DNA from: Tardiphaga sp.
GTDB lineage: Bacteria; Pseudomonadota; Alphaproteobacteria; Rhizobiales; Xanthobacteraceae
Assembly: GCF_044340795.1 (NCBI RefSeq)
Contig: NZ_JBIISY010000003.1
Location: forward strand, 1,471-65,470
Direction: 5' to 3'
Length of the DNA stretch: 64,000 bases
The position numbers were made by a program, and so were the translations under genes. The notes under the pieces were generated by a model. That model saw nothing but the letters and a program-made list of their open reading frames with translations. It was not told where the DNA came from and ran no database searches. Below are positions 36,243 to 49,741 of this stretch, piece after piece (position 1 is the stretch's first letter; every line of letters begins with the position of its first letter).

Positions 36243-36419
36243 GCGGCGTGGGCCCGGACTTCGTCGTCACTCGATGATCGTCGTTCTTCGCATGGCCGAG
36301 TTTATGATTTGCTGCAAGCGGATCGATGTCGGTCGCGACGATCTGCACCATGCAGCGCTAACGTTCTTGTCGACATTAAAATACACTGCTACCTTTGATT
36401 GAATGTCAGAGGTTGCCTG

Positions 36420-36521
36420 ATGCAGCATGTCGCGACGGTCGCATTCGAGGGGATCGAGGCCCGCGCGGTGGACGTGCAGGTGCAGGTCGTGCCGGGCCTT
36501 CCGAATTTCATAATAAGGTAG
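36420..36521 (+). pseudogene. comM: 5' fragment of comM/yifB (Mg-chelatase-like AAA+ ATPase), interrupted by an insertion
   Basis: MQHVATVAFEGIEARAVDVQVQVVPGLPNF matches the YifB/ComM N-terminus; it then reads ATA ATA AGG TAG where the family continues with IVGLPD. Confidence 0.85.
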
Positions 36522-36538: not shown

Positions 36539-36829
36539 TCAGAGTTCCGTTTTGCGATTTTGACCTTCGGCGATGCTGCGATGAAGCAGTTCTTCGTTGA
36601 ATGCGAGCTGGTGGTGGCTCAGGGCCTCTTTGAACGCTTCTGCAAAAGCAGGGAAATCGACCCAAGAGTTTTCGGCGACGTGAAGCGGCCACTCGTACAA
36701 CCAGCCGTCGGAGACAACGCGCTTCCGCAGCAGCTCCGCTGCCGGAATATAGACCGTCGGGACGTCTGATTTGGCCTCGAGCCCACTGTGCGTCACCCGC
36801 CATTGCTGATTCTCAAAAAGTTGCGCCAT
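36539..36829 (-). CDS. Hypothetical protein, 96 aa
   Basis: GGAG RBS; YEWPLHVAENSWVDFPAFAEAF segment looks globular; divergent from rep. Confidence 0.7.
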   Translation of the reverse strand: MAQLFENQQWRVTHSGLEAKSDVPTVYIPAAELLRKRVVSDGWLYEWPLHVAENSWVDFPAFAEAFKEALSHHQLAFNEELLHRSIAEGQNRKTEL

Positions 36830-36934: not shown

Positions 36935-39928
36935 GTGCCACAGCCGAGTGTTCTCGACCAAAAATTGCGTCTATCGGTGAATCGTGCCCTCATCAACAAG
37001 AACGAGGCCGGCAACGAGAGCCTGTTCAAGCAGGGCTGGGAGAACGTCGAGCTGACGCCCCGGGAGCTCGCCGACGAAGTCGATCAGGGCCATGCCTATG
37101 CCTGCCAGCTCTCGGGAACCCGCAGCGCTGCAAATTTCGTTAGGTCAGACATCCTGTCCGTGGACATCGACCAGGATCTTTCGATCTCCGAAGCGAAGAA
37201 GCTGCCCTTCGCCCAGCAACACCTGACGATCCTCTACACCACACCAAGCCACAGCGAGAGTCGCCACCGCTTTCGCCTCATCTTTGCGCTGCCGAGGTCC
37301 ATTGAGACACCGCAAGAGATGCGGGCCGCGCTGCGGAGCCTTGCTCTCCGCTTTGGCGGCGATCGATCGGCAACCGATCCGGCCCGCCTGTTCTATGGCT
37401 CCCGAGGCTCCAATCCGCAGGTCTTTGAAAGAGCGATCACTGCCGACGTCCTCGATGAGCTTATCGCGCAGGGACTGGAAGCTGATCAACGCGAAAGCCC
37501 CAAGAGCGGACGGACCACCACCGTTTCGAAGCAGCGGATCTCCCCCGATCGAATCATCACCCTTGAGGACGGGCGGACACAGCTGTTCCGCGAACTGGAG
37601 CCGAAGACGCGCATCTGCTGCCCGTTTCACTACGATCGAAACGCCAGCGCGTTCGTCACCACCTCGCAGGCCGGTGTGAACGGAATCCATTGCATGACGT
37701 GCCGACAATCGTTCTGGCCGCCCTCTGCGACACAGTTTGACGACTTCTCCGACTTTGATGAACGAGTGAAGGAAGCCGAACACTACTTCGCTGGCAATGT
37801 GGATATTGGACCGTTCCAGAAACTCCTGACTGGTGTGATCCATCATCCCGGCTTGGCCCACTCACGCATCTATCGCACCGAAGGCCAATTCCTGAAACTA
37901 CCGGAAAAGCTTCCCGAAGGCCTTGTCTTCATCAAAAGCCCCAAAGGCACCGGAAAGACCGCTGAGCTTGCGCGCGCTATGCAGCAGAGAACAGCCGCAA
38001 AGGAAGCTTCGAGTCACGATCTGCTCGACTTGCTCGATGACGGGCCTGACACCCCCGACTCGCGGCTCCGCACACACCGTGGGTCGACACTGCTGATTGG
38101 ACACCGGATAGCGCTTATCAGGCAGACCTGCAGTCGACTTGGGCTCGAGTGCTATCTCGACTTCGAAGGCCCCCTGACGAGCAAAGCGCTCGGTGTTTGC
38201 CTCGACAGCCTCGAGCGACTTACCTGGACTGAGCAGGTCAGCACTTACAAGTCTGAGTCACGCGAGAATTTGTTTGAGACGGTCGTAATTGACGAGTCGG
38301 AGCAGGTTCTCTCTCATTTTTTGTCTCCGCTCATCGATAACAGTTCGCGCAACGCGATCTTCATGATCTTCTGTCGGCTTCTCCGTCGAGCAAAGCGCAT
38401 TATCACGCTTGATGCTGACCTTGGCTGGCTCACGTTCGAAACGATCACCAAGCTCGCGCAACGGATGGACGATAGCACGAGAAAGCCAAGTTCACTGTAT
38501 CTCAATGAACGCAAGATCGGTTCAAAGCTGCAGGTCTTCGCGTCAAAGGATCACCTGATTGGTGACCTCAAGCAGATGGTCAACGACGGTAAACGCGTGT
38601 TCGTCACATCGAACTCAATGGGACAGATCGACCGGTTGCATCAGGGCCTAATGGAGCAAGCAACCGACGAACTCCGATGCATTCGCATCACCTCGGAGAC
38701 CGTCAAGGCCGATGAGGCGAAAGCTTTCGTCGCTGATCCCCCAGCAGAGGCCTTGAAATACGATGTGATCCTGACGTCGCCTTCACTCGGCACTGGCGTT
38801 GACATTACCTTTCCAGAGCAGGCCGAGCTGATCGATGTTGTGTACGGGATCTTCGAGACGGGCATCACGACACACTTTGACATGGATCAGCAGCTCTGGC
38901 GGGTTCGTCACCCCGGCGAAGTGAAGGTTTGGATCAGTCCGAGAACAGCGTCGTTCGATACGTCTGCGGATGTTGTGCGACGCGAGATCCAGCAGAAGCA
39001 GCTCTTCAAAAGTGTTCTCAGCGATTACGACGATAACCTAAGGCCAGAATATCACACCAACGACGAGTTTATCGATATGGCGGTGCTGGCAACCTCCCAG
39101 CAGCGCATGTCGAAGAACAACCTTAAGCGCAACTTCCTCGCGATGAAACGGCAGCACGGACATGCGATCGAGTTCATCGACCGTGACCAGACCGCGGCAG
39201 GATATGGTCGTGATCTGAACGAGATCGGCAAGCGTCTTGCCGACCGGCAGTATCGGGAAAAACTCAAGGCGGCTCTGAGGCTAACAGAGGAACAAGCGAC
39301 GGAGATAGACGAACGGATCAAGGCTCGCGATGACGTCACAGAGAGTGAGCACGCGGCATATGACAGATATCGAATGGAGCGCTTCTACCGCGAGCCGATC
39401 ACCGACAAGATGATCGACGACGATAATCGAGGGCGCCTCCGTCAACAGGTGATGCGGTTCGAGCAGCTATCAGACCACCAGAGCTTGCGTGACGCACGAA
39501 TTCTTGACCAGGGTAGCGAGTATGCGCTTAAGCTCCGATTTGTCACGGACTGGCGATCTTCCGGCGCATTGCTGGCTGAGCTGCTCACGCTTGCCGGCGT
39601 CTATGCCGACGGCAGATTCCTGGCCAATGTCGCTTACGACCGGCTGTCGCTAGTCTCGATGATGCGGCGCGCGATTAAGCTGAAACCGATCATTGAGGGC
39701 CAACTAGGCGTCGAGGTGCGGATGGACGACAGCAGGGGGTGTGATCAGCTCCGCGAGCTCCTGAAGCTGGTCGGGTTGGACCAGCTAGCTGCCGGCAAAA
39801 CCAAGGCTAAAGCAGTCGCGGGAGGCAAGACGATATATCGCTATCAGCTGGACGAAATCGCGCTGAACAGAATGCAGGCGATCGCTGATCACAGAGCATC
39901 ACAAAGCGCCCGTTCGATGATGCGCTAA
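36935..39928 (+). CDS. Replication protein: AEP-like primase + Zn ribbon + SF2 (UL9/CyRepA1-like) helicase
   Basis: SVDID, YTTPSH...RFRLIF, DPARLFYG; CPFH...CMTC; KSPKGTGKT, VIDESEQ, LDADL, SPSLGTGVDI, QQLWRVR. Confidence 0.8.
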   Translation: MPQPSVLDQKLRLSVNRALINKNEAGNESLFKQGWENVELTPRELADEVDQGHAYACQLSGTRSAANFVRSDILSVDIDQDLSISEAKKLPFAQQHLTILYTTPSHSESRHRFRLIFALPRSIETPQEMRAALRSLALRFGGDRSATDPARLFYGSRGSNPQVFERAITADVLDELIAQGLEADQRESPKSGRTTTVSKQRISPDRIITLEDGRTQLFRELEPKTRICCPFHYDRNASAFVTTSQAGVNGIHCMTCRQSFWPPSATQFDDFSDFDERVKEAEHYFAGNVDIGPFQKLLTGVIHHPGLAHSRIYRTEGQFLKLPEKLPEGLVFIKSPKGTGKTAELARAMQQRTAAKEASSHDLLDLLDDGPDTPDSRLRTHRGSTLLIGHRIALIRQTCSRLGLECYLDFEGPLTSKALGVCLDSLERLTWTEQVSTYKSESRENLFETVVIDESEQVLSHFLSPLIDNSSRNAIFMIFCRLLRRAKRIITLDADLGWLTFETITKLAQRMDDSTRKPSSLYLNERKIGSKLQVFASKDHLIGDLKQMVNDGKRVFVTSNSMGQIDRLHQGLMEQATDELRCIRITSETVKADEAKAFVADPPAEALKYDVILTSPSLGTGVDITFPEQAELIDVVYGIFETGITTHFDMDQQLWRVRHPGEVKVWISPRTASFDTSADVVRREIQQKQLFKSVLSDYDDNLRPEYHTNDEFIDMAVLATSQQRMSKNNLKRNFLAMKRQHGHAIEFIDRDQTAAGYGRDLNEIGKRLADRQYREKLKAALRLTEEQATEIDERIKARDDVTESEHAAYDRYRMERFYREPITDKMIDDDNRGRLRQQVMRFEQLSDHQSLRDARILDQGSEYALKLRFVTDWRSSGALLAELLTLAGVYADGRFLANVAYDRLSLVSMMRRAIKLKPIIEGQLGVEVRMDDSRGCDQLRELLKLVGLDQLAAGKTKAKAVAGGKTIYRYQLDEIALNRMQAIADHRASQSARSMMR

Positions 39929-39940
39929 GATCACAAATAA

Positions 39941-39968
39941 GAAGAGCGCGGTCAGAACCGCGCTCTTC
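39941..39968. terminator. Hairpin between convergent rep and paralogue A
   Basis: GAAGAGCGCGGT-CAGA-ACCGCGCTCTTC. Confidence 0.75.
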
Positions 39969-39992
39969 TGCCTCGTGAGATCCCCTGTCGCC

Positions 39993-40517
39993 CTACCCGT
40001 TGTTACCGGTCAAACGACGCACCGGGCCTCCAATGTTGCGCTGAAACGCGGGATGCTTATGGAGGAAGACAATCATGGTTGCGACGAATGTGCCGCACAA
40101 CGTCGCTGCCGGATCTCGCGTACAATGGTCGAATTGGCGGATGGAGGCGAGCAATGCCTCTTCGAGGTCGTTGTCCAACATGGAAACGCCAAAGAGCCGC
40201 TTACAGGCCTCCACATCTTCAAAACCGTCCACCAGATCATCGAACGTAACGCGGCTTACAGCGCCCGGGTAGTCCAGCGCCTCCGTGGAGTGACGATCTT
40301 CGCGCGTGTGGTAGTCCAAAGGCATGCTCGTGTGTTGCGGCGTGTCGTCATCCCCGTCGTGCAGATCGTAATAGTCTGCCTCCCCTTGCATCCATGCGGG
40401 CTGCGCTTTGGGGAAAGGAATGATTTGCGCACTCTCGCGATTTGGCGTCTGTGCGCGCCCGTCCTCATCCTCCGCTGAGCCGGCATGGTCCGGCACCTCA
40501 AACGTCGTGTTCTTCAT
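39993..40517 (-). CDS. Paralogue A of an unrecognised acidic family, 174 aa
   Basis: Shares LFGVxxLDxD...FLxxHP C-terminal domain with B and C; CAGGA RBS. Confidence 0.75.
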   Translation of the reverse strand: MKNTTFEVPDHAGSAEDEDGRAQTPNRESAQIIPFPKAQPAWMQGEADYYDLHDGDDDTPQHTSMPLDYHTREDRHSTEALDYPGAVSRVTFDDLVDGFEDVEACKRLFGVSMLDNDLEEALLASIRQFDHCTRDPAATLCGTFVATMIVFLHKHPAFQRNIGGPVRRLTGNNG

Positions 40518-40588
40518 ATTGATCGTTCCTGCATTATCTTTCGCCAGCCATTCTGGCTGGACTGATATCGCCGCCTGTCGCTCGCACT

Positions 40589-40602
40589 AATACGGAAACC
40601 TA
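40589..40602 (-). promoter_or_regulatory. Conserved upstream repeat, copy 1 (TAGGTTTCCGTATT)
   Basis: 72 bp upstream of the A start; identical to the copy at 41682. Confidence 0.75.
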
Positions 40603-40621
40603 AATGTGCGAATGGCGAAAT

Positions 40622-40648
40622 AAAAAAAGCCACCGCACTAGCGGTGGC
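40622..40648 (-). terminator. Intrinsic terminator after paralogue B
   Basis: Minus strand GCCACCGC-TAGT-GCGGTGGC then TTTTTT. Confidence 0.8.
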
Positions 40649-40668
40649 CTCTTGAAGCAGTGCATCGC

Positions 40669-41073
40669 TTACCCGATTGCGACGATTTTTTTGTCCGTTC
40701 CGCTCTTGTCGAAAAAGGCGGCATGTGCTGGATGGGACCGCAAGAAGAGCGCCATTGCGAGGAATGTCCGGTCAAGGTCAGGACTCTCCCGGTACTCTCC
40801 ATCCGGAACGGACGCCTCGACAGATGCCTTCAAAGCTTCAAACGTGACGTCATCAATGGATCTCATGAAAAACAGATTGGCCATCGAAGACGATTTGCGC
40901 ATCGCTTGGTGAACAATCTCGCTCAGATTTTGCGCTTGAAAGTCAGCGTAGTCGTGGTCGTATTGCAACGACTTCACAATACCTTCGTCTTGGAGATCTT
41001 CGAAAGCCTCCATTTCTGCGTTACAGATCATGCTCATTGTCGAATCGACAATTATGCGGGTCTTGGACTTCAT
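40669..41073 (-). CDS. Paralogue B, 134 aa
   Basis: Aligns without gaps to C over 115 aa (36 identities by hand); CAGGAG RBS. Confidence 0.85.
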   Translation of the reverse strand: MKSKTRIIVDSTMSMICNAEMEAFEDLQDEGIVKSLQYDHDYADFQAQNLSEIVHQAMRKSSSMANLFFMRSIDDVTFEALKASVEASVPDGEYRESPDLDRTFLAMALFLRSHPAHAAFFDKSGTDKKIVAIG

Positions 41074-41147
41074 TGTAATGCTCCTGTTGTCATCGCGGTC
41101 ACGGCGACCGTCGACTGTTAACGGGATACGGGGACCCTACTCGCGGT

Positions 41148-41161
41148 AATACCGAAACTTG
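41148..41161 (-). promoter_or_regulatory. Conserved upstream repeat, copy 2 (CAAGTTTCGGTATT)
   Basis: 75 bp upstream of the B start. Confidence 0.7.
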
Positions 41162-41183
41162 ATTTCGCGAATCGGAAAGCATG

Positions 41184-41215
41184 AAAAAGGCTACCGCTGT
41201 GAAGCGGTAGCCTTT
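41184..41215 (-). terminator. Intrinsic terminator after paralogue C
   Basis: AAAGGCTACCGCT-4 nt-AGCGGTAGCCTTT with a U-tract on the minus strand. Confidence 0.8.
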
Positions 41216-41245
41216 CGGTTTTCTTCAATGACTTGCCCAGCTGAC

Positions 41246-41608
41246 CTATGTTGAACTGTATGACGGATGGTGAGCAATGAAGGCACCGATGGCCTTGAAC
41301 GCTCGATCCAGCTCTGCGATCTCGGTGTGCGGGAGATCGCGAGTGACGCCGTTGATAGCGATCTTTGCTGAGGCGAATGTATCATGGTCGATGTAATCGA
41401 CACCCAACATCTTCGCCATTACGGTTCTTTTGCGGAGGGCGATGTGAGCCTGTTCGAGAAACTCTCGAGTTCTCAGGTCTTCGCTCTCATGGTCGTAGTC
41501 CAGCTCGTCTTTGACCTCCGAGCCACGTAACTCTTCATACTCCTCTTCGCATTGATAGCGAATTCGGTTCAGAACGTGGTCGATGCGAATTTGTTTAATC
41601 GACTTCAA
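41246..41608 (-). CDS. Paralogue C, 120 aa, TTG start
   Basis: GGAG RBS then TTG AAG TCG gives MKSIKQIRID, matching B's MKSKTRIIVD; ends FIAHHPSYSST. Confidence 0.85.
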   Translation of the reverse strand: MKSIKQIRIDHVLNRIRYQCEEEYEELRGSEVKDELDYDHESEDLRTREFLEQAHIALRKRTVMAKMLGVDYIDHDTFASAKIAINGVTRDLPHTEIAELDRAFKAIGAFIAHHPSYSST

Positions 41609-41681
41609 GGTGCGTGCTCCAAAATGCCGACCAGGCACCACGCCTGGTCGTCCATTGGGATACGCTGGTGCGCTGCGCATC

Positions 41682-41695
41682 AATACGGAAACCTA
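41682..41695 (-). promoter_or_regulatory. Conserved upstream repeat, copy 3 (TAGGTTTCCGTATT)
   Basis: 74 bp upstream of the C start; its TAG is the stop codon of the upstream gene. Confidence 0.75.
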
Positions 41696-42193
41696 TTTTT
41701 GCGACCGAGTATTGCGATTTGGCAGAGATTTGACGATCCCACTCTTCCGCAACTGCCCAATAATCCGGGTGATCGTCTTCGGTTCCTGTGTATACTCCTT
41801 AAACTTGCGACGGAGGGACGCCGCAACCTCTTCATCGGTCGCGTATGGGTTGTTGCCAGCTTCCTGATCGAAGCGAGCTCCTAGCGTCTCGCGAAATTCC
41901 GGCGACCACTTCAGCGGTGCTCCAGCTTTCTGTTTCTCATAGTAAAAAACAGAGCCGATGCCATCCATTAAATCGAGCCAATGAAATGGATTTTTAGGAT
42001 CAAGCTTTGCTTCTCGAAACAGCCTGCCAACGATGCTCTCTTCGTTAGTCGCGCTTTCTTGGATACAGAAGAACATATCGACTACTGTCTCATTATCCAG
42101 CTCGCCCGACTCTGATGGATCCAACCAGCTATCGTCTTCTCCGAATGCTGCGAGCATCTTCTCGAAATTTTGTTTGTAAGGATGTATGGGCAT
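41693..42193 (-). CDS. Hypothetical protein D, 166 aa, possibly DNA-binding
   Basis: Acidic N-half; LDPKNPFHW, GAPLKWS, basic helical C-terminus. Function is inference. Confidence 0.7.
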   Translation of the reverse strand: MPIHPYKQNFEKMLAAFGEDDSWLDPSESGELDNETVVDMFFCIQESATNEESIVGRLFREAKLDPKNPFHWLDLMDGIGSVFYYEKQKAGAPLKWSPEFRETLGARFDQEAGNNPYATDEEVAASLRRKFKEYTQEPKTITRIIGQLRKSGIVKSLPNRNTRSQK

Positions 42194-42376
42194 TGTCTAA
42201 ATCTTGGTTTCACCAGTTGTGACTGTGTACTCACGATTTCTCACCCTCACTTCGTTCGGGTGAGCCTTCGGCACTTCAGATTTTCTTGTTCAATCCGATC
42301 CAAACCGCACGGTAGGGTAGCGCCCGTCAGTGGATATAGCTTTGCTATCGGAGAGTAGCCATTTTTGACGTTACGG

Positions 42377-42622
42377 CTACTGTTCTCTAGCAAAGCCATG
42401 CCGAAGTCTGTGAGCGACATCGGCATCGATGAAATAGAGGAACCAATTGGTAAGACCGGGTCTTGCGGATCGATCTTTCACCCTCTGCTTGTGACGCTCA
42501 AACCTGCGGACCATTTCATCGATCATCGCGGTTCTAGATGGACCAAAGCTTTCCCATCTCTCTTGCCGGCTTCGTTTTGCGACCATTGCCAGCTTTAGTC
42601 GTTCGTGCGTCGTACGGCTCAC
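42377..42622 (-). CDS. Hypothetical basic protein E, 81 aa
   Basis: Co-oriented with A-D; no motif recognised; start uncertain. Confidence 0.45.
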   Translation of the reverse strand: MSRTTHERLKLAMVAKRSRQERWESFGPSRTAMIDEMVRRFERHKQRVKDRSARPGLTNWFLYFIDADVAHRLRHGFAREQ

Positions 42623-42861
42623 GACCGTCCGGTGTCTCAGGCCACCGTGTTTTTCCTTCGCGATAAGTCCGTGAGTTTCAGACCGTCGCGGGGACGCTCA
42701 AATGCATCCATAACTGAGATTTCAATTGTATTTATCGCGCGCAGAAAGCCCGATTGAAGATCCAAAGAAATTTAATCATCGCTGAATTTTTTTTGGCGTA
42801 CTCGGGTCACGCAAACGTCCCCATTGCTGTGATCTTAGTCCGATACCCCGCTGGAGCGACA

Positions 42862-44028
42862 CTAGCGCGCAGTAAAGAAGAAATCTTCGCTCCCAGACAA
42901 CGACCCGTAGCTATAAGGCTGCTGTTTTTTGTTGGTTGCCGACAGAACATCGTCGCGCACCAGATCGAACAGTCGCCGAATTTCTAGGTTGGGTGTCTTG
43001 AGGCGGCGTAGCAGCGCGAGCGCGAAGGGGCTATTGTCACCGTCGCCATCGAGCGCCAGCTCGCCGTGCTTGGCCGAATACACGATAAGCGTACCGGCAT
43101 CTGGCTCAGTGCGTGCCAGTCCGCGAGTCAGCGCGCGAGTTGCCACAGTACGCTTCATCTGATCAAGGAATGGATTGTTCCGACAAGCATCTAACACCAC
43201 CAGACGGAGGCGACGCGCCGACTCGGCAGCGCTTAGCACCTTCCCGATATCGATCGACTCAAGATCGATATCGCGGTCGACGCGCAACCTCGCATCTATT
43301 GGGATAAGATAGTTGTTACCTTTGTATTCGATCCCATGGCCCGAGTAGTAAATCACCGCCCAGTCTGCGTTGTCCGCTACCTGGGCAAACTCGCTCAGTG
43401 CAACTACGAGATCTTCCCGCCTTAGATCGAGCTTTAGGGTGACTGATTGAAAGCCGGCCTCCATGAGTTCGCGGTGTAGAGCTCTAGCATCATTTGCGGC
43501 ATTTGGCAGCACTGGGACGTGGCCATAGTTGCTATTTCCGATCACCAGCGCGACACGTCGTCCACCCGTCACAGCAACTCGATCGTTGGTCGGCGGCGTA
43601 ATCGCCGCTGGCGCAATTGCAGGCACGGCTGGAGGAGCCGCCGCAACGGCGGTCTTCGAAGGCTTTGCCGCGTCGCGTCGCTTTGGGGCTTCAGCAACGC
43701 GAGCGGTCCGTGCTCGTCCGCTAGCGGCGGCTTCCTGTAAGCGGCCACCGCCGCCACCTAAACCGCCGCCGCCAAACGTGTTCATCATACATTGGCGCAC
43801 TGCAGGGGTAGCGCGTGCACGGCACGATTCGAGATCGCCACCAGCGCGCATGCAAGGGCCGACGATCGGCCGTCCAACCCGCGCGCGGCAGGCTTCGAGC
43901 GCGGCTTCGCGCGACTGCGCCTTGGCGTGCGGCGCGCTCTCCAGCAGCGCCATGAACAGAAGTAGCAAGGTGGCCAGCACACGCCCGAAGGCGCGACAGT
44001 CCACTGTCGCGCCTGAGGAAGATCGCAT
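42862..44028 (-). CDS. Exported caspase-like peptidase C14 with a 4-Cys N-terminal domain
   Basis: Signal/TM segment, four Cys, Gly-rich linker, RVALVIGNS, YSGHG, LDACRNNP; start uncertain. Confidence 0.88.
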   Translation of the reverse strand: MRSSSGATVDCRAFGRVLATLLLLFMALLESAPHAKAQSREAALEACRARVGRPIVGPCMRAGGDLESCRARATPAVRQCMMNTFGGGGLGGGGGRLQEAAASGRARTARVAEAPKRRDAAKPSKTAVAAAPPAVPAIAPAAITPPTNDRVAVTGGRRVALVIGNSNYGHVPVLPNAANDARALHRELMEAGFQSVTLKLDLRREDLVVALSEFAQVADNADWAVIYYSGHGIEYKGNNYLIPIDARLRVDRDIDLESIDIGKVLSAAESARRLRLVVLDACRNNPFLDQMKRTVATRALTRGLARTEPDAGTLIVYSAKHGELALDGDGDNSPFALALLRRLKTPNLEIRRLFDLVRDDVLSATNKKQQPYSYGSLSGSEDFFFTAR

Positions 44029-44158
44029 GGGGAAAAGGGCGGGCGTGCTGCGTATAGAACAACCGGTCAATAACGACATCTCGGGACAAAGCCTGTGGGG
44101 TCAAAAATGACTAAGCTTAAGCGCGCAATGTCCCAAGCCTACAACAAAGCGCCTCCCA

Positions 44159-49156: not shown

Positions 49157-49741
49157 TTATAGCATCTGAACGACTTTTCGCTGCGCGTCTGCATCGACGT
49201 CGATGTAACGCTGCGTGGTGCGAAGATTCGTGTGGCCAGCCAGCTCCTGAACGTCACGGATTGATCCGCCCACCGCCGAGATCCTCCGAGCAGCATTAGT
49301 GATGAACGTTCTTCGGCCGCTGTGGCTTGAACAGCCGGTGAAGCCCAGCACCTCGTACCAGCGAGAAAACATGTTCACGATTGTCTGGGGGCTGACTCGA
49401 TCTGACCTCTCAGTTGAAATGACGTGTTTCCCGACTTTGGGTCCAAGATGATCCTTCAGATCCTGAAGGGCCGACTTGAGCTCACCGTTCATAGGGATGA
49501 TCCGGCCTGACCTGCCTTTACTCGCCTTGTTCTGAAGGTGGATGGCCTGACCGACTTGCCCGTCCGCATCGGTGATCATCTCCCAGGACAGGAGGGCAAT
49601 CTCCTTGGCCCTCAGTCCAGCTTTGAGGGACAAGAGGAAGATGGCTCGGTTTCGAATGGGGTATCGAGACTTTAGGAGAAAGCCGAGAATAGCTTCGGCT
49701 TGACCTTTGGTTAGGGTCTTCGCTTGTCTTCCAAGAGACAT
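49157..49741 (-). CDS. Short tyrosine recombinase, catalytic domain only, 194 aa
   Basis: GLRAKE (R), SKG (K), SHSGRR (HxxR), LAGH, TQRY (Y). Confidence 0.9.
   Translation of the reverse strand: MSLGRQAKTLTKGQAEAILGFLLKSRYPIRNRAIFLLSLKAGLRAKEIALLSWEMITDADGQVGQAIHLQNKASKGRSGRIIPMNGELKSALQDLKDHLGPKVGKHVISTERSDRVSPQTIVNMFSRWYEVLGFTGCSSHSGRRTFITNAARRISAVGGSIRDVQELAGHTNLRTTQRYIDVDADAQRKVVQML

Follow-up and report, generated by a model that had tools for sequence, protein, structure and literature searches.

Three tandem genes of a rare, previously undescribed all-alpha protein superfamily beside a CyRepA1-type replication gene on a comM island of Tardiphaga sp.

Organisation of the gene array

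The DNA analysed here, referred to as the window, is a stretch of 64,000 nucleotides (nt) from Tardiphaga sp. (NCBI RefSeq assembly GCF_044340795.1, contig NZ_JBIISY010000003.1, positions 1,471 to 65,470 of the forward strand), and all positions given below are those of the window unless another contig is named. This study concerns three small genes within it, A, B and C, which are located on an island in the comM gene, and the proteins that they encode. From the list of open reading frames (ORFs), four head-to-tail ORFs were identified on the minus strand, directly past the convergent gene of a replication protein (Rep). Gene A (39993-40517) encodes a protein of 174 amino acids (aa) consisting of an acidic N-terminal extension and a C-terminal family domain, gene B (40669-41073) a protein of 134 aa, gene C (41246-41608) a protein of 120 aa with a TTG start codon, and gene D (41693-42193) a protein of 166 aa with a C-terminal three-helix domain that resembles a helix-turn-helix (HTH). 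The reading frame of C extends upstream to 41683 as a longer ORF; judging from the sequence, the start at 41608 is preferred, because it restores the MKS N-terminus of the family and places C at the same distance as A and B from an upstream box described below.

Sequences resembling a ribosome binding site (AGGA/GGAG) were found ahead of the start codons of A, B and C, and a terminator hairpin was identified for each of these genes. The hairpin of A (39940-39969, with a 13-bp stem containing 8 GC pairs) is bidirectional and common to A and the convergent Rep gene, the stop codons of which are 64 bp apart. That of B was located by a hairpin scan at 40624-40653 on the minus strand, and that of C at 41186-41215, where it is followed by TTTTT on the same strand. 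All three hairpins are G+C-rich and, when read on the minus strand, followed by a run of T residues; terminator hairpins with T-runs were also identified in the arrays of two related elements, L008 and L007. The original prediction, made without database searches, had described three ORFs at these coordinates with a TTG start for C, a ribosome binding site and a terminator for each gene, and an array lying directly against the replication gene. This description was borne out, with the terminator of A being held in common with Rep.

Relationship between A, B and C

Comparison of B with C using BLASTP gave 35 identities over 119 positions with no gaps (E 2e-18), and their alignment with MAFFT contained 36 invariant columns, including MKS, YDH, RK, MA, ID..TF, LDR.F.A and HP. 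The gapless alignment with 36 identities that had earlier been counted by hand was thereby reproduced. Pairwise comparison of A with B and C was marginal (E 0.013 and 0.48, respectively). When the profiles of the A-type and B/C-type families were compared using hhalign, they matched over 75 C-terminal columns with a probability of 86.5% (E 4.6e-6), so that the C-terminal part which A had been proposed to have in common with B and C is real but remote, at approximately 75 residues. A natural fusion protein of 318 aa (P0004) was also identified, with an N-terminal domain of the B/C type (E 2e-23) and a C-terminal domain of the A type (hhalign probability 93.8%). Because of this fusion and the profile match, A is regarded as a distant paralogue of B and C through its C-terminal domain. 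The A-type C-terminal domain was additionally found in a 175-aa protein of the related element L022 (hhalign probability 93.9% against the A family).

The hallmark of the superfamily is a C-terminal helical domain of approximately 70 residues that ends in (F/L)xxxHP(A/S)(F/Y), and it was found in A, B and C alike. Polar residues that are invariant in the family alignment are Y38, D39 (followed by H40 in most members), E52, D74, D101 and H114-P115, several of which are replaced in the A-type domain. In a maximum-likelihood tree, B of the window clustered with B of L008 (support 99/97) and C of the window with C of L008 (100/99). As the tree pairs B with B and C with C, the duplication that gave rise to B and C took place before this element and L008 diverged, which agrees with the earlier description of the array as diversified. 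Gene product D was found to be unrelated to the B/C family using hhalign, and no domain common to Rep and either the A or the B/C family was identified when both families were compared with Rep by the same method.

Searches for relatives and known families

Scans of A, B and C against Pfam-A, NCBIfam, PHROG and PADLOC gave a best E value of 0.009, with all matches far below the cut-offs, and PHROG yielded nothing for A to D at E<=0.1 other than one weak, unnamed match for D. For D, too, no usable match was obtained in any of the four collections. Profile searches of PDB sequences gave no match. Nothing below E 3.5 was obtained when the structure model of B was compared with the PDB (best E 5.6) and with BFVD using Foldseek. 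The statement in the original prediction that the family could not be assigned therefore stands across Pfam, NCBIfam, PHROG, PADLOC, the PDB and Foldseek.

Relatives were found to be few, with approximately 15 among about 15 billion proteins, all of which derive from soil metagenome or Logan contigs. A profile of B and C retrieved five true relatives from 1.84 billion cluster representatives, and profile searches of a collection of 5.8 billion clusters added a few more B/C-type proteins together with six A-type proteins. A word-indexed search with B alone as the query retrieved only B. No relatives were found when about 185,000 GTDB species genomes were scanned using conserved peptide patterns, pattern scans of metagenome contig and viral contig collections gave no confirmed relatives, and a TBLASTN search with A, B and D gave no matches among 72,556 plasmids. 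The A profile detected no A-type gene in any of 400 genomes from this taxonomic family. When 60 relatives were searched in six frames with the B/C profile, a single match was obtained, which was rejected since its reading frame ran antisense to an ABC transporter gene.

Helical repeats of approximately 70 aa in Gram-positive surface proteins (P0007-P0010) were also retrieved, with whole-protein E values of 1e-6 to 1e-4 that arose from the sum of three to seven weak repeat matches. These repeats do not themselves belong to any Pfam family, and the matches to them were judged uninformative, the resemblance being probably compositional or helical in nature.

Charge, structure model and selection

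The three proteins were found to differ in charge. A has an isoelectric point (pI) of 4.65 and a net charge of -16, with its acidic residues prominent in the N-terminal half, while the values for B are a pI of 4.86 and a net charge of -8, and those for C a pI of 5.6 and a net charge of -6. The original description of an acidic family thus applies well to A, which is markedly acidic, but less so to B and C, which are only mildly so. An AlphaFold model of B, built from an alignment of nine sequences, was all-alpha, with a mean predicted local distance difference test score (pLDDT) of 73 and a predicted template modelling score of 0.55.

The ratio of nonsynonymous to synonymous substitution rates (dN/dS) was 0.07 between the B/C-type genes of elements L006 and L012, 0.11 between those of L006 and L009, and 0.14-0.20 for A-type pairs. 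Between the window and L008, dN was 0.32-0.42 for A, B and C compared with 0.20 for Rep, and protein identities were 72% for Rep, 79% for a small gene beside it, 50% for A, 52% for B, 58% for C and 41% for D. A, B and C are real, constrained genes under purifying selection that change about twice as fast as Rep. Their products belong to a previously undescribed and very rare superfamily of all-alpha proteins.

Related elements

Two types of element carrying members of the superfamily were identified. In the Rep-linked type, A was found next to one or two other superfamily members, arranged in tandem, with a Rep of the CyRepA1 type alongside, in six of six elements, and A and D occurred only together with Rep, again in all six, with D being co-inherited with Rep and A. 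Orthologues of A that are 46-57% identical were found in L008, L007, L013 and L020/L021, all beside Rep; that of L022, also beside Rep, is more distant (47% over the best local match). The gene order in L008 is D-C-B-A, convergent with Rep, followed by a small gene of 97 aa and a comM fragment. In L007 and L013, a short integrase gene is followed by D, a single B/C-type gene and A, and Rep is convergent with this array. L020/L021, found within a contig of 433 kb where it occupies the same gshB-GGDEF-comM site, comprises a short integrase gene, a conserved non-coding block, D, a gene for a weakly B/C-like protein of 215 aa and A, likewise convergent with Rep. In L022, the short integrase gene is followed by D, the gene for the 175-aa protein with an A-type domain and A, and then by Rep on the same strand.

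In the second, Rep-less type, represented by three methyltransferase-linked elements, Rep, A and D are replaced by the methyltransferase and uncharacterised proteins of 274-383 aa, whereas the conserved block and the short recombinase are kept together with a single B/C-type gene. L006, an element of this type, was located at the same comM junction, and a gene resembling a PolB exonuclease is also present in L009. The short contigs recovered for L009-L011 carry the B/C-type gene with no recombinase on them. Upstream of the B/C-type gene, the Rep-less type has a different conserved sequence containing TTGACA. Such arrays thus recur beside a primase-helicase Rep in other elements, and B/C-type genes are also found as Rep-less singletons.

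A 32-nt box upstream of A, B and C

Comparison of the sequences upstream of the three genes revealed a 32-nt box with the consensus TTCGCGnAAWYAGGTTTCCGTATTnnCGCGAG, situated 70-100 nt upstream of the start codons of A (40581-40612), B (41140-41171) and C (41674-41705) on the minus strand, the last of these overlapping the 3' end of D. The box consists of inverted arms (TCGCG/CGCGA) that flank a conserved core of 19-20 nt, and the arms of the A box show a compensatory change (TCGCAC...GTGCGA). It was found to be conserved ahead of eight genes in three elements, namely A, B and C of the window, three genes of L008 and two of L007, and is kept in L008 and L007 even though their A to D proteins are only 41-59% identical to those of the window. 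The box with its flanks was not found elsewhere in the 6.6-Mb genome, and no box was found ahead of D. The original prediction had proposed that the array is under common control, and this gained support from an element that is kept before A, B and C as well as before the five homologous genes of L008 and L007. The box may be a promoter or operator that places A, B and C under one regulator.

A stem-loop was identified in the 5' untranslated region (UTR) of each gene on the minus strand (A, 40544-40560; B, approximately 41095-41115; C, 41629-41649). Each of these leader hairpins lies between the box and the Shine-Dalgarno (SD) sequence, with its position conserved and its sequence variable. 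The order within each unit is thus the 32-nt box, a variable 5'-UTR hairpin, the SD sequence, the ORF and an intrinsic terminator.

Gene D and the conserved non-coding block

The AlphaFold model of D was confident only for the last three helices (pLDDT 80-90). Within D, a segment with the pattern (S/T)ITR(I/M)IGxLRxxGIVK is kept in the three box-bearing elements and altered in those that do not have the box. D may accordingly be put forward as the best candidate for the regulator of the box, acting through this putative recognition helix, because the helix is kept in exactly those elements that keep the box.

Upstream of D on the minus strand lies a conserved non-coding block of approximately 500 nt (42231-42735) with 72-80% DNA identity to L020, L009, L006 and L012, whereas identity between the flanking proteins is only 20-40%. 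It is partly kept in L008, L021 and L022. Analysis with RNAalifold predicted 137 pairs, with 90% of cells paired. Compensatory changes were found at 22 pairs, compared with 12 in shuffles and two to six when the pairing partners were slid, and many G-U pairs were present, favouring the minus strand. No match was obtained in an Rfam scan of the region from 36 to 44 kb. In L020, L006 and L012, the block is situated just downstream of a gene for a tyrosine recombinase that consists of the catalytic domain only. The block could be a structured RNA, or alternatively an origin of replication (ori) or attachment (att) site.

A protein of 117 aa (MPIANGLYSIRISMDGEDRR...) was observed to be near-identical in L020 (7767-8120) and in a genome of the same genus (L024, G003:C56). 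In the latter, its gene adjoins a 182-bp remnant of the conserved block.

The comM island, Rep and backbone genes

To the left, the window consists of ordinary chromosome and carries hrcA, rdgB, hemN, gshB and a GGDEF gene. At 36399-36521 on the plus strand, a 5' fragment of comM (yifB) marks the left junction of the island; the 40-aa N-terminus of ComM that it encodes occurs once in the genome, and the G+C content falls from about 0.63 to 0.55 past the fragment (at approximately 36.4 kb). The 3' part of comM (477 codons) was found on contig C66 (G000, L015) beside a large serine recombinase gene. As comM is split between the window and contig C66, the window contains the left end of an island of more than 35 kb in comM. 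This island is probably composite. A literature search on comM islands in Bradyrhizobium found no relevant paper.

Rep (36935-39928, plus strand) comprises a primase-like N-terminus, a zinc ribbon and a CyRepA1-type helicase/initiator. It matched the NCBIfam model NF042913 (CyRepA1) with 395.6 bits (cut-off 200; E 4.7e-118), in addition to replication and primase families of PHROG. Plasmid replication proteins of the CyRepA1 type are known from cyanobacteria (PMC10079941, PMC9978351). It is the neighbouring Rep, and not A, B or C, that passes the CyRepA1 model, and the cyanobacterial and Bradyrhizobium plasmid relatives of Rep were found without homologues of A, B and D. The closest plasmid Rep, at 45% identity, is that of Bradyrhizobium barranii pBb144S4a (L005, 211581-214569), which is annotated as two ORFs of 707 and 281 aa and may be disrupted. 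The small gene between comM and Rep (36539-36829, minus strand) encodes a protein of 96 aa with no family match. It is always found beside Rep, with 79% identity to its 97-aa counterpart in L008 and further homologues beside Rep in L022 and the B. barranii plasmid, and its product is likely to be a partner of Rep.

The tyrosine recombinase of the window (49157-49741, minus strand, 194 aa) belongs to the same element backbone, also consists of a catalytic domain only and is 87% identical to that of L020 and 68% identical to that of L007. This short recombinase adjoins D or the block in L007, L013, L020, L022, L006 and L012; in the window, it lies approximately 7 kb from D and the block, with cargo genes in between. 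Cargo of the defence type in the surrounding islands includes a Cap4 nuclease with AAA_15, ApeA-HEPN, Abi_alpha, an Mrr-helicase with Dcm/Vsr and a caspase-like protein. Inserted between the block and the recombinase of the window is a gene for a 405-aa protein (42862-44079, minus strand) with a Peptidase_C14 caspase domain (Pfam E 1.5e-36; PADLOC 'caspase', E 1e-7), which is possible defence cargo.

Possible function of A, B and C

The interpretation favoured here, held tentatively and with rather less than even confidence, is that A, B and C form a co-regulated accessory module of protein-binding factors, possibly controlled by D, on a comM-inserting integrative replicon. The shared box would serve as the promoter or operator through which one regulator, D being the best candidate, acts on all three genes. 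Their products, for which no recognisable catalytic or DNA-binding family was found, probably act by binding other proteins, and hetero-oligomers would be likely, given that domains of the B/C and A types are joined in one natural protein. A, B and C may thereby modulate the establishment or replication of the element itself after its excision or entry, with A, as the member linked to Rep, behaving like a small regulator of copy number.

A known parallel to such a role is the copy-number regulator Cnr, a small protein of satellite phage P4 that acts on the alpha primase-helicase. The likeness lies in the small size of the proteins and in the position of their genes next to the gene for a primase-helicase replication protein on an integrative element. 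Cnr works by binding the replication protein, and by analogy A, B and C may do likewise. There are also differences, in that no sequence relationship exists (A, B and C have no PHROG match), two or three paralogues are present here, each with its own putative promoter box and terminator, and B/C-type genes exist without any Rep.

Several observations weigh against the interpretation as a co-regulated, replication-linked module. A scan for sigma-70 promoters found no site at the boxes and no consensus match, the box is degenerate or absent in the more distant elements L013, L020 and L022, and in L020 and L022 the genes are packed in an operon-like manner. The best Foldseek matches of the D model were HTH DNA-binding domains, but these were non-significant (best E 0.26). 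In the Rep-less elements L006, L012 and L009-L011, a single B/C-type gene is situated beside an N6/N4 DNA methyltransferase, a neighbourhood that suits anti-restriction at least as well. Furthermore, no relatives of A to D were found near the Rep of pBb144S4a, nor any of A, B or D in the plasmid collection. A strictly Rep-dependent function of the B/C type is weakened by these Rep-less singletons and by the occurrence of a 45%-identical plasmid Rep without A, B and D.

The main rival is that A, B and C are early-expressed anti-defence or host-takeover proteins, with each paralogue neutralising a different host or competitor system, and that A in particular could be an acidic mimic of DNA or protein; this is possible, although it is considered unlikely on balance. 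Small, cytoplasmic, diversified, tandem and individually transcribed genes on a mobile element would suit such a role, as would the charge of -16 and acidic N-terminal half of A, the rate of change of A, B and C at about twice that of Rep, the defence-type cargo of the surrounding islands and the position of a Rep-less B/C-type gene next to an orphan methyltransferase and the PolB-exonuclease-like gene. The comparison with ArdA and Ocr, which are small, acidic, early-expressed proteins of mobile elements, extends to the occurrence of B/C relatives beside an orphan methyltransferase. The differences are that no match to the Pfam ArdA family was obtained, the all-alpha model of B had no Foldseek match in the PDB, and B and C have net charges of only -8 and -6. 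No likeness was found to solved structures, including ArdA and Ocr, or to predicted viral structures, B and C are only mildly acidic, and the strong purifying selection (dN/dS 0.07-0.20) gives no sign of an arms race at the level of the whole gene. Anti-defence genes tend to be spread across mobile elements, and the lack of relatives in plasmid, phage-family and viral-contig collections would also be unusual for such genes. For B and C specifically, the role of DNA mimic suggested by the original prediction was weakened by their modest charge, the all-alpha model and the absence of Foldseek matches to solved structures, and it is unlikely.

A related and slightly less probable reading is that A, B and C, together with D and the box, constitute an early-gene switch in the style of heteroimmunity, with the three proteins as inhibitors that represent a new fold family, each with its own target among host defences or rival comM elements. 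Immunity or early-gene regions, in which a repressor together with repeated operators governs the early genes, are known from temperate phages and integrative elements. The locus described here resembles them in that the A-C module has diverged more rapidly than the genes for replication and integration, an operator-like box precedes each gene and D, a candidate HTH protein, is encoded next to them. It differs in that the box cannot be recognised as a sigma-70 promoter and the genes all belong to one paralogous family. If this reading were true, a new anti-defence family confined to the comM islands of Bradyrhizobium-like bacteria would have been found.

It is improbable that A, B and C assist site-specific recombination as accessory proteins, either as directionality or as architectural factors of the short tyrosine recombinase or of the large serine recombinase that targets comM. 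Such a role would be consistent with the position of the D-B/C-A block directly after the short recombinase in L007 and L013 and with the presence of B/C-type genes alongside this recombinase in both types of element. Serine recombinases are notorious for the diversity of their directionality factors, which are small proteins, and this too counts in its favour. Conversely, the recombinase of the window is 7 kb away, behind cargo genes, none was found on the short contigs of L009-L011, two or three paralogues would not be expected for a directionality factor, and the B model has no predicted DNA-binding fold. Equally doubtful is the reading of the family as small metal-binding or enzymatic helical bundles, encoded by plain cargo genes and with a metabolic or nucleotide-related activity that plays no part in the life cycle of the element. 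In its favour, the invariant Y38, D39, E52, D74, D101 and H114-P115 could form a metal or active site, and a separate terminator for each gene recalls moron-type cargo. Against it, no fold or profile match to enzyme families was obtained, several of the invariant residues are replaced in the A-type domain, and the genes occupy a fixed backbone position beside Rep or the methyltransferase, outside the variable cargo. Anti-defence is thus ranked as the main rival of the favoured accessory module, with the recombination and enzymatic readings less likely.

Significance

The setting of A, B and C, a fast-evolving accessory module of a mobile element, is of a familiar kind, and the immediate reach of the finding is limited because the distribution of the family is very narrow (approximately 15 sequences). 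What is added is a new superfamily with a testable regulatory layout, in which one box precedes each of three monocistronic genes and a candidate regulator is encoded alongside. The elements that carry it are poorly known replicons of soil alphaproteobacteria that insert into comM and bear defence cargo. Should A, B and C be found to counter host defences, a new family would be added to those with this activity; should they instead modulate Rep, accessory factors would be known for the first time for a replication system of the CyRepA1 type.

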